A stretch of DNA of 64,000 bases. Source: a virus. Taxonomy: Duplodnaviria; Heunggongvirae; Uroviricota; Caudoviricetes. The notes under the pieces are model-generated. The model did not search any database, was not told the DNA's origin, and was given only the letters and a program-made list of their open reading frames with translations. The stretch lies in IMG/VR virus record IMGVR_UViG_3300012348_000120; one strand, 5' to 3'. A program made the translations under genes and the position numbers. This document shows, piece by piece, positions 3,765 through 56,906 of this stretch; the first letter of the stretch is position 1, and each line of letters opens with the position of its first letter.

Positions 3765-6700
3765 TTATAGCTGAACGTATTCAACTGTTACTAGTGCTGC
3801 GCCTGCTGTTGCTGCTGAAACTAGAGAGATAGTTGCACCTGCTGCTGTAGCTGTTGCGAATGGTAGTTCTGCAACGTAGGTTCCAACTACATCTTCTTCG
3901 ATTTCTGCTGCTGACATTAGAGTATTTGTAGCATCAGAGATTGACACTTCTGCGTCATATGCTGATGTAACTTTTACTGTAATGCGTGAAACATAGTAGG
4001 TTTTGCCAGATACGTTCACGATTGAGCCGATTGAGCCTGATGTGCCCATTGTTGCGCGTAGAACGAAGGAGTTCTTGTTTGCAACTGCTGCATCTGCATA
4101 ATCTTGCATATCGGCTGTGTAGCCTGAATCTGCTAGGTATGCTGCAACGCGACCGTCTGTGTAGTATAGGTTGACTGAACCTTCTGCTAGTGCATCAGTG
4201 TCGTGGTTTGAAATGTCTGAAACTGTTCCAGTTACGTCACCAGTTAGATCACCAATGAAGTTTGCTGCAACGAAGTCTTCTGTTCCAACAGTCCAACGAT
4301 CAGTTGTTTCGTCCCATACAAGAGAAACATTTGTTGATGTTCCACGCTCAACTTCGATACCAGCGTCCTGTGATGGAGCACCAGTCAAGTTTGAGTTTAG
4401 AACGATTGTGTTGTCTGCTAGAGCGATAGTTTCAGTATTAACAGTGGTTGTTGTTCCTGCAACGATTAGGTTACCTGAGATTGTTACGTCTGCTGCGGTA
4501 ATGTCGTTTGAGAACAATGTTCCGTTGACAGTAACATCATTGAATGTTACGTCTGAGGTTGTTTCAACTGCCTGACCGATTGAGAATTCACCCGCTGAGT
4601 AGTGAACGCCTGTTCCTGCTGATAGGTGAGCACGAACTTCTGATGCTGATGGACCTGTGTAGGTGAATGCGCCTGTTGCTGAGTCATATGAGAATGAACC
4701 ATCGCCGCCTGCGTCAACTGCACTTAGTAGACCCTTGATGTATGCAGCATGGTTAGTAATGTCAGAAATCTGACCTGTTACGTCACCTGTTAGGTCTGCA
4801 TATACGTTGTTAGCATAAACGTTGTTCCACTCTTTTGAAGCAGTACCTAGATCGAATGTGCCTGTAACGTCTGGAATGAAGTCTGATGCTACGTCTGCAT
4901 TGAACTCAACATAATCTGTATCTGCGTCACCTACGATTAGGTTGCCTGATAGTGTCATGTTGTTACCATAGATGTTTGCTGAGAATGTTGCATCTCCTGC
5001 TACGGTTAGAGAACCGTTTACATCTAGGTTACCATCAACAGTTGCGTTTCCAGTAGCAGTTAGGTTGCCTGATAGTGCTGCTGAATTACCATTGACGGTT
5101 AGTGTTCCGCCGATGATCGCATCACCATTCTGACGAACTTCAAATAGCTTCAGTGCGTCTGATGAAACAACTTCAAATACGTTTGCAACGTTTGATCCTA
5201 GTGCTTTTGTTGCATTTGATTCTACAGTTACTAGTTGTGATAGAACTGTATTACCAACTACTTCTAGATCACCAGTCATAGTCATTACGTTTGCATTGAT
5301 GTTTGCTAGGAATGTAGCATCACCAGAAACAGTAATACCGCCGTCAACAGTTGCGTTTCCACCAATGTGAACATCGCCCGCAAATGAGGACTGTCCTGTT
5401 CCATTTACTGTTAGAACGCCACCAATGACTGTATCGCCGTTTTGCATAACTTGGAATAGTTTATCGTCGCCAGATGCATCTGAAACTTCAAATACTGCTG
5501 TTGTTGATGAACCTAGACCAGTTACGTCTGACTTGATGGTCACTTTTTCTGATAGGATTGTATCACCAGCAACGGTTAGGTTGCCTGATAGTGACATTGT
5601 ATTACCAGTGATGTTTGCTTGGAATGTTGAACCGCCTGTAACAGTCAACGCGCCACCAACTGTAATATTACCAGTTGCTGTTACGTTTGCAAATGTTACG
5701 CTGTCAGTTGTTCCAACTGCTTGACCGATTGAGAACTGACCGTTTGAGTAAGAAACGCCTGTTCCTGCTGATAGGTGAGCGCGAACTTCTGCTGCTGATG
5801 GACCAGTGTATGAGATTACACCAGTTGATGAGTTGTATGATAGAGAACCATCACCACCGTTATCAGTTACAGAAATTGCCGCACGTGCACGTGCGTCTGT
5901 GTAGTATAGGTTTGAACCTTCGTCGATGTCATCAGTGTCAACATTAACATTGACCCACTTTGAGCCGTTATACATTAGAAGATCGCCAGAAGCAGATGAT
6001 GTTAGGGTAACGTCATTTAGCTCTGATAGTGCGTCTTTTCCTGCTGCTACAGTAGTAATGTATGCACGTAGGTCGGTGTCTAGTGTTGAGATTTCACCGT
6101 CAGTGTAGGTGTTTGCATCTGCTTCTGCTTGGTCAGCGTATGACTGATATGCAGTTGTGATAGCAACTTCACGTGCATCTGTATATGCGTTTGCATCTGC
6201 TTCTGCTTTTGCAATTGAACCTTCTACGTTTGCAGCGCCTTCAATGATGTCTAGACGACCGTCTAGTGCATTTTCTGCGTTTGTTGCACGTGTTACTTCG
6301 TCAGCTAGATCATTTGTTAGAACTAGTTCTGCTGCCATTGCACGTGTTACTTCGTCAGCTAGATCATTTGTTAGAACTAGTTCTGCTGCCATTGCGCGTG
6401 TTTCTTCAGCATCAATGTTGTTTTGTAGAGTTGTATCGTTGTTGGAGCGTGTTGTTGCTTCTGCATCGATGTTGTCCTGTAGAACGCCATCTGCTGCTAG
6501 ACGTGTTGCTGCTTCTGATGCTAGATCGTTTGTTAGTGTGGTATCTGCTGCCTTATATGCAGTATCAACTGCTTTTAGTGCTGCGTCTAGTTTGTTGTCT
6601 GCATCTTTTAGAGATACTGCGTCTGCGATATAGTTCGCCAAAGCGTTTGCAGTGTAGCCACCATCGGTGCCTAGACCTGCGCCAGCCTGTGTTGCATCTA

Positions 6701-53716: not shown

Positions 53717-54358
53717 TTATCTTCTCACTACCCATCCACGAAAATTGTAGCTTTGCCATACTTGATCAGCATGTCCAAGATACTTCAACTCTTCTGTGAT
53801 TTCAGCATTAGTCAAACAAAACATCTTTCCAATAAGGCTGTAGTCTTTGTCTAAAATCTCTTTGTCAGTGAAGTGCTTTCGTTTTTGATTGTAGTGTTCT
53901 TTTGTCATAATAGAGTTTAGTTTTGCGGTGTCACTAAACACTTTTTCTGCAAGTAATAACGTTGCACCGTTGTCTATCAACTCTTTCAGCTTATTTACCA
54001 CTTGCCTACGCTTGTATTTGCCAAGAAACTGCAAAGTAAACATAGATACGATCAGGTCAACGGATGTAAAGTTTTCCAATGCAGTGATTACATCTTGGTT
54101 GAGAAACACAAAGTTTTTCTCAGATGCCATTTCAACTACATCAACACCCACATAGAAGCCTTCTGTTGAGGCTGATAGGTCGTTGAGAAACTTGCCAGTG
54201 CTGCATCCAATATCAATACACTGGCCTTCTGGTGGCATATATTCAAGGGCTATGGCCCTAAAAACGTCATACAGTCCTTGATAGTTTGGAATGGAAAGGT
54301 TGATATGATTGTCAAAATCTTCAACCTTCTGAAAGTCAAACTTGTTGTGCATCATCAA
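53717..54358 (-). CDS. CmoA-like carboxy-SAM synthase / SAM methyltransferase
   Basis: FDF..VEDFDNHINLSIPNY, IDIGCSTG, FTLQFL, LAEK. Confidence 0.8.
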   Translation of the reverse strand: MMMHNKFDFQKVEDFDNHINLSIPNYQGLYDVFRAIALEYMPPEGQCIDIGCSTGKFLNDLSASTEGFYVGVDVVEMASEKNFVFLNQDVITALENFTSVDLIVSMFTLQFLGKYKRRQVVNKLKELIDNGATLLLAEKVFSDTAKLNSIMTKEHYNQKRKHFTDKEILDKDYSLIGKMFCLTNAEITEELKYLGHADQVWQSYNFRGWVVRR

Positions 54359-55229
54359 ATTCCCGTATCAGTTCGCCAACATGTTGAATTACATTCACTG
54401 TCATTCCATTGTAGACAAACTTTTGCGTGTCAGTCAAATTGCACCCATCGAACCAATCAATCGGAAATGATTGTAATAGCAGTCGTTCAGTAGGTGTAAC
54501 TCTACGAATTCTATTTTCAGTGATTACCAAATCAGTAAACTGCTTGTAGTCTCTTTTGCAAAGAGTAGAGGCTAATCCTGATTCGGTAAATTCTGCATTG
54601 CTTTGACGAGTGATGTAGGTAAATCCTTCTTGCCCTCTTTCTGGCTTCGCCTCAAAACTCCACTTAAAGCCTTGTGCGATAGATTCCACTTTTCGTCTGT
54701 GTTCGTCTGTATCACGTTCTCTAAACTTGAAGATTTCGGTTCCAAGGGGGATTCCGTCACGGACGGCCACAATGTAAACTCTACGTCTTCGTTGGGGAAC
54801 TCCAAAAAACTTGGAGTCGTAGATTGTCCAAGTCGCATCGTACCCGATTTGGGCAAGGTCGTGTAAGACGACTTCAATTCCTCTGCCAAGGATTGCAAAG
54901 ACGTTTTCAATGATCGCATATTTTGGTTTTCCTTCATCTATAAGTCGTAGATACTCTTTCCATAGTCCAGAACGTTCACCAGTAATACCAGCACCTTTTC
55001 CGCCTACAGAAATGTCTTGGCAGGGGAAACCCCCACACATAACGTCATATTCTCCACCATTCAGATGGAGTGTTTTTACATTGTCAAAAATGATAGTATC
55101 TGGAAAATTCTTTTTTAGAACTCGTGTAGCTGGTTCCTCAATTTCACACATAGCAGAAATATCAAATCCTGCTCGTTGAAGACCGAGTTCAAACCCACCA
55201 ACACCACTAAATAGTCCCAATACTTTCAT
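54336..55229 (-). CDS. C5-cytosine DNA methyltransferase family protein
   Basis: LFSGVGG, GGFPCQDIS, IENV, QRRRRVY. Confidence 0.92.
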   Translation of the reverse strand: MKVLGLFSGVGGFELGLQRAGFDISAMCEIEEPATRVLKKNFPDTIIFDNVKTLHLNGGEYDVMCGGFPCQDISVGGKGAGITGERSGLWKEYLRLIDEGKPKYAIIENVFAILGRGIEVVLHDLAQIGYDATWTIYDSKFFGVPQRRRRVYIVAVRDGIPLGTEIFKFRERDTDEHRRKVESIAQGFKWSFEAKPERGQEGFTYITRQSNAEFTESGLASTLCKRDYKQFTDLVITENRIRRVTPTERLLLQSFPIDWFDGCNLTDTQKFVYNGMTVNVIQHVGELIREFDDAQQV

Positions 55230-55719: not shown

Positions 55720-55795
55720 AGTGACCCAAAGGGATTCGAACCCTCACCTTTGCTTTTTTGCAGCAACGTCCTATCCTTACTTGGACCATGTGTAT
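55720..55795 (-). pseudogene. degenerate tRNA (loop gcAAAaa)
   Basis: D, anticodon and T arms present; acceptor stem broken; no CCA. Confidence 0.55.
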
Positions 55796-55888: not shown

Positions 55889-55963
55889 TGGTGCGGTTTA
55901 ATGGATTTGAACCATTGACCTCTGTCGAGTCAGGACAGCGTTCTACCCCTGAACTAAAACCGC
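55889..55963 (-). tRNA. tRNA-Val(GAC)
   Basis: Cloverleaf, ctgtc-ct-GAC-tc-gacag, CCA. Confidence 0.93.
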
Positions 55964-55966
55964 ATT

Positions 55967-56198
55967 GTTCAATAGTGTGCTACTACGCCAAAGGAAAACA
56001 GAGCCAAAAATATCATACGAGAGATTGTGTTTCAAACATCATGACGAGCGATTATGTTTCTGCTACTGTCCGCATTTTCCCGCCTGACATCTCCCTATAC
56101 CACTTGTTTTCACAGCCCGATATAGTCTCTTTGCGTCTCCGGTGCTTCGTTCCACTCTTTAAAGGATGTGCTGCCTCTAAGCCAACCTCCTACTGAAC
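55967..56198 (-). ncRNA. 23S rRNA GTPase-associated-centre (H43-H44) mimic RNA with a 165-nt insert
   Basis: AGGAGGTTGGCTTAGAGGCAGCACATCCTTTAAAGAGT [165 nt] GCGTAGTAGCACACT; 9-bp closing stem GTTCAGTAG/CTATTGAAC. Confidence 0.85.
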
Positions 56199-56906
56199 TT
56201 TCAAGTAATCATATTCTCCACTAAGTAACTTCTCAACAAATGCAGGAACCATTTCAGTTGCAACTCCACCCATAGTCTCTGTAAACATAAAGTTATTATC
56301 AGAAGGATGTAGATTGATTTCAACCGTATGCGCTCTTGCTTTTTTCTTTGCAGTTTTCACAAAACCAGCCGCAGGATAAACTGTTCCAGATGTTCCGATT
56401 GAAACGAAAATGTCACAGGTTCTTAATGCATCATCAATTATTTCCATATGATATGGAAATTCTCCAAACCACACAATGTTTGGTCGCAATGCAGGATGAT
56501 AGCAATCGTCACATATATCGTGTGTTTGCATTACGCTATTTGCAGTCGTAATGTCTCCACACTTTCTACAAATAGATTCGTGTAAACTTCCATGCATATG
56601 AATTACTCTTGTTGACCCTGCTTTTTCGTGCAAGTCATCAACGTTCTGAGTAATCAAAGTAACATCAAAATTTTCATTATGCTGTAACGCTGCTAATGCA
56701 TAATGCGCCTTGTTTGGTTTAGCATACGAAACTTCTTCACGTCTATGGTTATAAAAGTCTAAAACGAGTTTAGGGTTTTTATAGAAGCCTTCTGGTGTTG
56801 CTACATCAGTTACATCGTATTCATTCCAACGTCCATCGGTGTCACGAAATGTTTTAATTCCGCTTTCTGCGGAAATACCCGCACCTGTTAATATACATAC
56901 CTTCAT
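56190..56906 (-). CDS. cobB: Sir2-family NAD-dependent deacylase (CobB-like)
   Basis: GAGISAESGIKTFRD, ITQNVDDLHEKAG, HMHG, RPNIVWFGE, IGTSGTVYPAA. Confidence 0.95.
   Translation of the reverse strand: MKVCILTGAGISAESGIKTFRDTDGRWNEYDVTDVATPEGFYKNPKLVLDFYNHRREEVSYAKPNKAHYALAALQHNENFDVTLITQNVDDLHEKAGSTRVIHMHGSLHESICRKCGDITTANSVMQTHDICDDCYHPALRPNIVWFGEFPYHMEIIDDALRTCDIFVSIGTSGTVYPAAGFVKTAKKKARAHTVEINLHPSDNNFMFTETMGGVATEMVPAFVEKLLSGEYDYLKVQ

Follow-up and report, generated by a model that had tools for sequence, protein, structure and literature searches.

A stand-alone phage RNA that replicates the GTPase-associated centre of 23S rRNA and carries an obligatory hypervariable arm

Here we describe a non-coding RNA of 232 nucleotides (nt), encoded amid the tRNA genes of a freshwater phage, whose two ends fold as the GTPase-associated centre (GAC) of bacterial 23S rRNA, as is shown by covariation across a very large family of similar phage elements. 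The RNA lies on the minus strand, at positions 55967-56198, of a stretch of 64,000 nt from the IMG/VR virus record IMGVR_UViG_3300012348_000120; "the window" denotes this whole stretch. The replica is split by an inserted arm that is present in every member of the family and differs extensively between them. The fold and the family themselves are close to certain. As to function, the RNA is probably a free-standing GAC mimic that binds host ribosomal protein uL11, serving as a sponge or decoy. The parts of the element are listed below, with E. coli 23S rRNA numbering for the segments that correspond to it; R1 is a covariance model of the family, and L numbers denote individual loci.

55967-56198, minus strand: whole element, a split replica of 23S rRNA helices 42-44 (H42-H44) with an inserted arm, 232 nt (sequence reading, R1 match).
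56190-56198, minus strand: outer (H42-like) stem, 5' strand, GUUCAGUAG, equivalent to 1047-1055.
56154-56189, minus strand: H43 and the H43/H44 junction, 36 nt, including the A1067 loop, equivalent to 1056-1090 (LSU_rRNA_bacteria match, E. coli alignment).
55989-56153, minus strand: inserted arm, 165 nt, following U1090 (sequence reading).
56017-56042, minus strand: 26-nt segment of the arm, missing from L117 (pairwise alignment with L117).
55976-55988, minus strand: 3' half of H44, GCGUAGUAGCACA, 13 nt, with the A1095 loop and the family-specific A1101, equivalent to 1091-1103.
55967-55975, minus strand: outer stem, 3' strand, CUAUUGAAC, equivalent to 1104-1112 and pairing with GUUCAGUAG.

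The resemblance to rRNA extends from primary sequence to tertiary contacts. When the two halves were joined and aligned globally to nucleotides 1054-1105 of the E. coli rrlB 23S sequence, 45 of 52 positions were identical, with one extra A, which reproduces the count that an initial annotation of this DNA had obtained by hand. Its description of the layout (both halves, the 9-bp stem and the 165-nt insert at 56153-55989) also held on re-reading of the minus strand, as did its claim, upon alignment, that the loop bases A1067 and A1095 are retained while two base pairs are swapped. These swaps replace U1058-A1080 by G-C and A1090-U1101 by U-A; the other substitutions fall at 1070, 1089 and 1096, and the extra A follows C1075 within the H43 half, where the relatives L117 and L084 have the same A. 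H43 is built from the pairs 1057-1081 (A-U), 1058-1080 (G-C) and 1059-1079 (G-C) and from 1062-1064/1074-1076 (GGC/GC(A)C, including the extra A), and the outer stem from nine pairs, one of them G-U, between GUUCAGUAG (56198-56190) and CUAUUGAAC (55975-55967). U1060-A1088, the 1082-1086 pair, A1084/A1085 and G1087-C1102, all tertiary features of the GAC, are present as well; in crystal structures of the uL11-GAC complex, U1060-A1088, U1082-A1086 and the 1084-1088 turn make up the tertiary core of the 58-nt domain.

Compared with the bacterial 23S GAC (H42-H44, E. coli 1051-1108, containing the 58-nt uL11/thiostrepton domain), the helices, tertiary pairs and both loops are alike, but the phage RNA is free-standing, closed by its own stem of about 9 bp and encoded by the phage amid tRNAs. 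It further differs in the extra arm, always at 1090/1091, in a UUUG linker, in A1101, which pairs with U1090 (rRNA has U1101), and in the greater variability across the phage family of positions 1067-1070 and 1096-1097. A search against Rfam gave the local LSU_rRNA_bacteria match foreseen in the initial annotation, on the 5' half (model 1096-1145, 16.3 bits, E=0.0067). What is present is not a contiguous 23S rRNA gene, being interrupted by 165 nt and closed by a stem of its own, and no other rRNA was detected in the 64-kb window, where tRNAs are the sole Rfam matches at gathering score; the earlier contention that no rrn operon had been captured is borne out. The data thus support the view that the window RNA is a stand-alone phage replica of the H42-H44 GAC. 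It occurs once in the window, where R1 gives no second match, and its single-sequence minimum free energy is unremarkable (z = -0.63).

The initial annotation recognised a GAC-like phage RNA, correctly, but missed that it belongs to a very large family. The search of other phages that it had proposed, carried out with sensitive blastn against about 50,000 phage records, returned the same 5' half in unrelated phages, namely Pseudomonas phages pf16, UNO-G1W1, Milchi and Astolliot, Aeromonas phage 4_4572 and Xanthomonas phages XacN1 and XaC1; a shorter query added Cronobacter phage GAP32, Pectobacterium phage CBB, Serratia phage BF, XbC2 and several Erwinia jumbo phages. In the records from the first query the element is throughout unannotated and lies on the tRNA strand, in or next to a tRNA array. 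The architecture is common to the loci read: a covarying outer stem, an H43-like half, a variable insert, the sequence TTTGGCGTAxxAGCxCAC and the second strand of the stem.

Two scans of IMG/VR viral contigs enlarged this set. A signature of the 3' half retrieved at least 120 loci, and among the 127 loci examined 111 had an H43-like half upstream on the same strand, several others being added later by the covariance model. An independent scan with an 18-nt word from the H43 loop alone found at least 118 viral loci (119 matches), and 108 of the 119 were split elements among the matches listed. Contiguous 23S was absent from the listed matches of both viral scans. In bacterial and archaeal genome contigs (596 Gb), by comparison, 13 of the first 120 pattern matches listed were real elements, which indicates that the family is phage-enriched; several of these 13 sit in dense tRNA arrays and are probably prophages or binned phage contigs. 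A rough prevalence comes from 31 control viral contigs of at least 50 kb, picked solely for a common tRNA word, of which 2 contained the exact 3' signature, with the R1 model revealing a third element at another control locus. Complete phage genomes with terminal repeats are among the carriers. The elements have a median length of 206 nt and usually an outer stem of 9 bp.

R1 was built from 31 short-insert members with the window's own cluster left out. It matched the window over its full length (56198..55963, model 1-162) with 64.8 bits and E=9.2e-19, supplying the significant formal match on which the initial identification had been made to depend, and it scored the genuine E. coli GAC (23S 1047-1116) at 48.6 bits. 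The family is thereby formally tied to H42-H44; by the same token the model alone cannot tell phage elements from rRNA, and it is the insert, A1101 and the genomic context that separate the two.

Some contigs contain two tandem GAC-like elements with differing arm classes (L004 and L005 at about 1440-1490, L024 at 40-390, and L145). The L145 copies, at 5124-5366 and from 5441 onward, both have exact H43 loops; in Milchi, Astolliot and L024 the upstream one of the two, read by eye, looks degenerate (TTTGGTGTCATAACACGCC). In about 8 of 110 members, among them L014, L087, L088, L118, L126 and L128, a second expansion is seen: behind GCAGCCA (near position 1077), the 3' strand of H43 has gained an additional hairpin of 16-30 nt.

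Conservation and covariation were assessed on 81-84 distinct members with a gap-free core. The pair 1058-1080 occurs as UA, GC, AU or CG and is paired in 100% of them, 1057-1081 is AU or CG across the family, and the tertiary pair 1082-1086 is UA, CG or AU and is paired in 98%. The H43 pairs in general are 95-100% paired with compensatory changes, and the outer H42-like stem comprises all Watson-Crick types and is 81-100% paired. For every variable pair, pairing exceeded both the maximum of 1000 partner shuffles and the slid-partner controls. Among positions not fixed by the retrieval, G1055, G1059, U1060, A1077, C1079, A1084, A1085, G1087, A1088 and U1090 are invariant, as are the U1060-A1088 and G1087-C1102 contacts, and G1089 is conserved in 99%. 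According to the known uL11-GAC structures, G1059, U1060, A1077, C1079, A1084, A1085, G1087 and A1088 belong to the tertiary core.

This pattern and the genomic context refute an origin of the element as non-functional debris, whether captured host rRNA or an assembly artefact, and we give that explanation practically no weight. Some phage records do contain genuine contiguous 23S: Paenibacillus phage Pd_22F (L006, MZ092003.1, about 83.4-84.1 kb) has a plain, unsplit stretch, probably of host origin or misassembled, and ordinary 23S also makes up several small "phage" records from Staphylococcus, Listeria and Escherichia. The elements of the family, however, have covarying pairs, reside in complete, terminally repeated genomes and are associated with tRNAs in a strand-perfect manner; moreover, A1101, G1089-U1090 and the UUUG linker are foreign to host rRNA.

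The insertion site lies always between U1090 and G1091, and the arm is found in every member, with no insert-less form among those retrieved. In almost every member its ends form a helix of at least 3 bp, mostly of 3-5 bp, with GC, AU, UA and CG covarying at each position. In the window, the base helix consists of GGAA (56153-56150) and UUCC (55996-55993), 4 bp, followed by the linker UUUG (55992-55989). Among the matches listed in the 5'-half retrieval, UUUG precedes G1091 in 83 of 108 members and A1101 is found in 106 of 108, E. coli having U at this position; A1101 creates a U1090-A1101 pair that closes the new three-way junction. The insert is an obligatory, closed and hypervariable arm whose position and closure are directly observed. 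It ranges from 28 to 437 nt, the smallest members (L016/L043) measuring about 88 nt overall with an arm made of one 6-bp hairpin, and the 135 unique inserts fall into 90 mutually unrelated sequence clusters. The final insert base is G in about 89% and A in about 11%. Short R1 matches resembling insert-less copies were rejected, as they are merely the 5' halves of long-insert members.

The arm of the window element clusters with those of L117, L046, L084 and L206. It is nearly identical to that of L117 save for a few substitutions and a 26-nt internal duplication (56017-56042), which L046 also lacks; the segment belongs to an imperfect tandem repeat (AATCGCTCGTCATGAT / AATCTCTCGTATGAT) and illustrates a way in which arms grow. 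The motifs CGAAGYA and GGAYAGYAR are common to the window arm and the largest arm class (pf16-like), but where that class has a conserved CCCC-NNNN-GG-UAA-GG bulged hairpin the window arm has a different one. This bulged hairpin and a GUGCGAAAUG motif are recurrent modules of the arms. RNAalifold mis-paired the core in the window arm's four close relatives and found no consensus for 24 class-A arms, which MAFFT was unable to align. A sarcin-ricin-type AGUA/GAA motif in class-A arms (in the window GGACAGUAG and CGAAG) was considered and dropped, since on inspection the pairs on either side of it do not hold in many members. Rfam gave no match to any family, group I and group II introns included, for the window insert at E<=10 or, at E<=0.5, for those of 19 diverse members, and comparison of all inserts with E. 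coli 16S, 23S and 5S rRNA (blastn-short) gave chance-level words only, apart from the sarcin-ricin loop (SRL) matches described below.

These features bear on whether the arm is removed, by group I self-splicing or by RNase III, to leave a contiguous or two-piece 58-nt GAC. The initial annotation had left three options open: an expansion helix, a group I intron and an RNase III-type intervening sequence. A U before the insert in 100% of members, a terminal G in about 89% and paired insert ends are what splicing or excision would predict, and the window conforms to the rule of U before and G at the end, although this rule alone does not define the group I class. Against self-splicing stand the lack of any intron match in the Rfam searches above, the 90 unrelated clusters and the roughly 11% of inserts ending in A; in addition, a group I core needs roughly 200 nt or more, so that inserts of 28-65 nt are too small for one, and the window insert has 165 nt. 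For RNase III, a base helix of 3-5 bp in most members and of 4 bp in the window is far from a long near-perfect duplex, and excision by this enzyme is unlikely. Of the three options the expansion helix is the one that stands, given the covarying ends and inserts down to 28 nt, and we consider removal of the arm by either route highly improbable.

If the arm is kept, it might be the functional, phage-specific part of the molecule, with the GAC serving as a conserved, nuclease-resistant handle bound by abundant uL11. A near-invariant core joined to so many unrelated inserts, the constant presence of the arm, the two copies with differing arms on some contigs (L145, and by eye L024 and Milchi/Astolliot) and the recurrent modules, which suggest selected structures, are all compatible with such a division of labour. 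Yet we can propose neither a target nor an activity for any arm, the single 6-bp hairpins of L016/L043 are hardly cargo, and hypervariability can equally be read as weak constraint. We regard this explanation as decidedly unlikely.

A minority of arms carry a second likeness to rRNA. In four long-arm members of one class (L052, L074, L104 and L158; arms of 300-350 nt), a hairpin with differing, covarying stems occurs at the same relative position, and its loop, AGUA-C-GNRA-G-GA, has the bulged-G/GNRA signature of the SRL; that of L104 is identical to E. coli 2654-2665. About 0.04 SRL-like matches with at most one mismatch would be expected by chance in about 20 kb of inserts. An SRL-like motif is lacking in the arm of the window element. 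Next to the SRL-bearing element of L074, a tmRNA-like match (4144-4232, minus strand, 41.2 bits against a gathering score of 47) adjoins it and a tRNA.

The joint occurrence of GAC and SRL copies recalls the enzymes that attack these sites. Tre23, an Rhs toxin, ADP-ribosylates 23S nucleotides 1095-1098 in H44 and thereby impairs the GTPase activity of EF-G (PMC8661411), and the SRL is attacked by VapC-mt20/26 and by ricin (PMC8661411; PMC13768812). The element could accordingly be an anti-defence decoy substrate that soaks up host or competitor enzymes aimed at the factor-binding site, such as ADP-ribosyltransferases acting on the H44 loop or nucleases and N-glycosidases directed at the SRL, and so spares the ribosomes during infection. 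Enzymes directed at both the GAC and the SRL exist (PMC8661411; PMC13768812), the H44 loop is kept exposed on an intact fold, and the SRL-like hairpin of the four long-insert members is not a uL11 ligand. The phage RNA has in common with the target site of Tre23 and of thiopeptides this RNA surface, which is presumably exposed (PMC8661411); in contrast to the Tre23 target, the family varies at 1096 and 1097, and an encounter with such enzymes or drugs is hypothetical. It is also in keeping with a decoy that the element lies amid phage tRNAs, which have themselves been proposed as counters to tRNA-targeting defences. On the other hand, we know of no anti-phage defence system that targets the GAC, and Tre23 is an interbacterial toxin of the type VI secretion system. 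The SRL-like hairpin is confined to about 3% of members and missing from the window arm, and a stoichiometric decoy would need very high abundance to counter a catalytic toxin. Overall, we judge a decoy substrate of this kind to be unlikely, if less so than a mere handle for the arm.

The neighbourhood of the element points to tRNA genes and to a possible route of biogenesis. The flanking features of the window element are:

55889-55963, minus strand: tRNA-Val(GAC), 3 nt downstream of the element (ARAGORN; Rfam tRNA, 65 bits).
56190-56906, minus strand: Sir2-family open reading frame (ORF) of 238 amino acids (aa), context outside the RNA (ORF list; Pfam PF02146, E=2.6e-46).

ARAGORN placed 658 tRNAs on the element strand and none on the opposite strand across 111 loci, and all 20 tRNAs of the window are on the minus strand. 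A tRNA adjacent to the element almost always lies 0-10 nt from the outer stem (for example L071). In the window, the last codons and stop of the Sir2-family ORF, which encodes a member of the NAD-dependent deacylase family, overlap the outer stem, the last three bases of GUUCAGUAG being the stop codon (56192-56190); this overlap and the 3-nt gap to tRNA-Val, both pointed out in the initial annotation, were recovered from the ORF list, PF02146 and ARAGORN. A sigma-70-like site ends 10 nt upstream of the element, but promoter-like sites nearby are not more frequent than expected by chance. We envisage that RNase P and the enzymes maturing tRNA 3' ends excise the RNA from a tRNA precursor; for the window element, RNase P cutting at the 5' end of tRNA-Val, 3 nt downstream, would set the 3' end, and the 5' end would arise either from a cut within the 3' end of the Sir2 gene or from a start at the promoter-like site. 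Sequencing runs matching the window are DNA from freshwater metagenomes and RNA runs with small shares; in four RNA runs, the contigs were either tRNA-Val look-alikes or a 39-nt H43 part continuing straight into genuine 23S, and are uninformative about the phage RNA.

Several further observations concern this region. The Sir2-family ORF is placed within the tRNA array, with tRNA-Met on one side and the GAC-like RNA on the other. Just 3' of the tRNA block, a 297-aa ORF (54336-55229, minus strand) contains a GGFPCQDIS motif typical of C5 cytosine DNA methyltransferases. Between tRNA-Val and tRNA-Phe, positions 55727-55790 (minus strand) give a weak, partial Rfam tRNA match (30.2 bits, model 6-65) that is not called by ARAGORN and may be a degenerate or non-canonical tRNA-like RNA. 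In XacN1 (L008, 828-1478), the element lies directly 3' of a gene annotated as a 2'-5' RNA ligase, which is not a recurrent neighbour.

A search for protein partners encoded by the phages themselves was largely negative. No uL11 or uL10 gene was present in 50 element-bearing viral genomes (26 of them at least 90% complete; 81-518 kb), and no neighbouring protein recurred in more than 10 of 159 loci, all 10 from related phages. Taken together, these two results indicate that the partner is most likely a host component, and the retention of all known determinants of folding and of uL11 recognition in the 58-nt domain makes host uL11 the prime candidate. Domains resembling bL12 were detected in 7 of the 50 genomes, including the 518-kb phage that holds L084 (G028:C1:9780-9983) and, among others, genomes G021, G045 and G030; this enrichment is not significant relative to a small set of tRNA-bearing controls free of the element (7/50 versus 1/29, or 8/52 versus 1/29).

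The bL12-like domains would have a place in a scheme in which the RNA, together with uL11 and perhaps the stalk, forms a miniature GTPase centre that traps EF-G, EF-Tu, IF2, RF3, release factors or RelA off the ribosome, retuning host translation or blocking the stringent response. Phage acquisition of bL12 has been documented (PMC6375957). Both factor-contacting bases, A1067 and A1095, are retained by the window element and, across the family, by 90-94% of members, and the four SRL-bearing members unite GAC and SRL on one RNA. The contact positions, however, vary more than the folding core does, and the outer stem is short (mostly 9 bp), unconserved and devoid of H42 features, which makes uL10 binding doubtful; nor is bL12 significantly enriched (8/52 versus 1/29) or uL10 found in any of the 50 genomes. 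Such a trap seems to us very unlikely. A broader version of the idea is that the element is a phage-made imitation of the translation-factor docking site, in which the GAC would recruit uL11 and perhaps the stalk, the arm, as a copy or analogue of the SRL, would contribute the second half, and the whole would engage GTPases or RelA off the ribosome or intercept enzymes aimed at the GAC and SRL. This is a speculative reading that we hold to be possible, with the balance of probability clearly against it.

The initial annotation had put forward a decoy role directed at uL11/uL10, RelA or GAC-targeting enzymes, which stays hypothetical. The function that we favour is binding of host uL11 by a free-standing mimic. 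According to this model, a stable non-coding RNA would be made from the phage tRNA transcript. Its two ends fold as the GAC three-way junction, tertiary pairs included: an H42-like stem, H43 bearing the A1067 loop and H44 bearing the A1095 loop. The variable structured arm leaves H44 between U1090 and G1091 and would remain in the mature RNA. Host uL11 would then be sequestered, or a protected ribonucleoprotein formed, and the RNA could thus act as a sponge or decoy towards the usual ligands of the GAC.

Several considerations weigh against this model. Expression, arm retention, uL11 binding and a benefit to the phage are steps that we infer. Most cellular uL11 is already bound to ribosomes, which renders the effectiveness of a sponge doubtful. 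Simple sequestration of uL11 leaves an arm that is both obligatory and hypervariable unexplained, and the position of this arm at 1090/1091 may pose a steric question for uL11 binding. The bases contacted by factors and thiopeptides are looser than the folding core (A1067 in 90%, G1068 in 77%, A1070 in 81%, A1095 in 94%; 1096 is A or G and 1097 U or C), and conservation of the H43 and H44 loops is partly a product of the retrieval patterns. The looseness of the contact bases does, at the same time, fit a role in folding and uL11 binding, and it weakens the notion of a pure factor mimic.

Precedents exist for parts of this picture. Ribosomal protein mRNA leaders (the L10 leader, RF00557, and those of L1, S8 and L20) are mimics of rRNA sites that compete with rRNA for the protein, and like them the phage element is an extraribosomal RNA reproducing the binding site of a ribosomal protein. 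These leaders, however, are cis-regulatory, lie upstream of ribosomal protein genes in cellular genomes and bear a loose likeness to rRNA, whereas the phage RNA is a near-exact copy with no adjoining ribosomal protein gene and no Rfam leader match; what follows the window element is tRNA-Val and not an ORF, so it is not the 5' leader of such a gene. T4 species 1 and 2 RNAs are small stable RNAs within a phage tRNA cluster, and in common with these, GOLLD and ROOL, the element is a non-coding RNA in or near phage tRNA arrays, on the tRNA strand and presumably released by tRNA enzymes. To our knowledge, none of them copies an rRNA domain, and neither GOLLD, ROOL nor any other Rfam family of this type matched the window element or the inserts of 19 members.

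Rfam 15 contains no family for this RNA, and no description of it was found in the openly searchable literature, subscription-only papers being outside reach. Two catalogues of structured RNAs do not mention the family; one of them, which covers about 10,000 viral candidates, reports that none coincided with an rRNA prediction. Phages are known for carrying tRNAs and a few ribosomal proteins, and a widespread phage RNA that copies a functional centre of the ribosome, tertiary contacts included, is apparently undescribed. As cultured phages carry the element, unannotated (pf16, GAP32, CBB, XacN1, Aeromonas 4_4572 and others), its function is directly testable. If uL11 or ligands of the GAC are bound, this would represent a new route of viral interference with translation, the stringent response or ribosome-directed toxins, and, should the element prove to imitate the factor docking site, a new level at which phages control the translation and immunity of their hosts. 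The uL11/thiostrepton RNA domain, so well studied on the ribosome, would then have a natural extraribosomal role.

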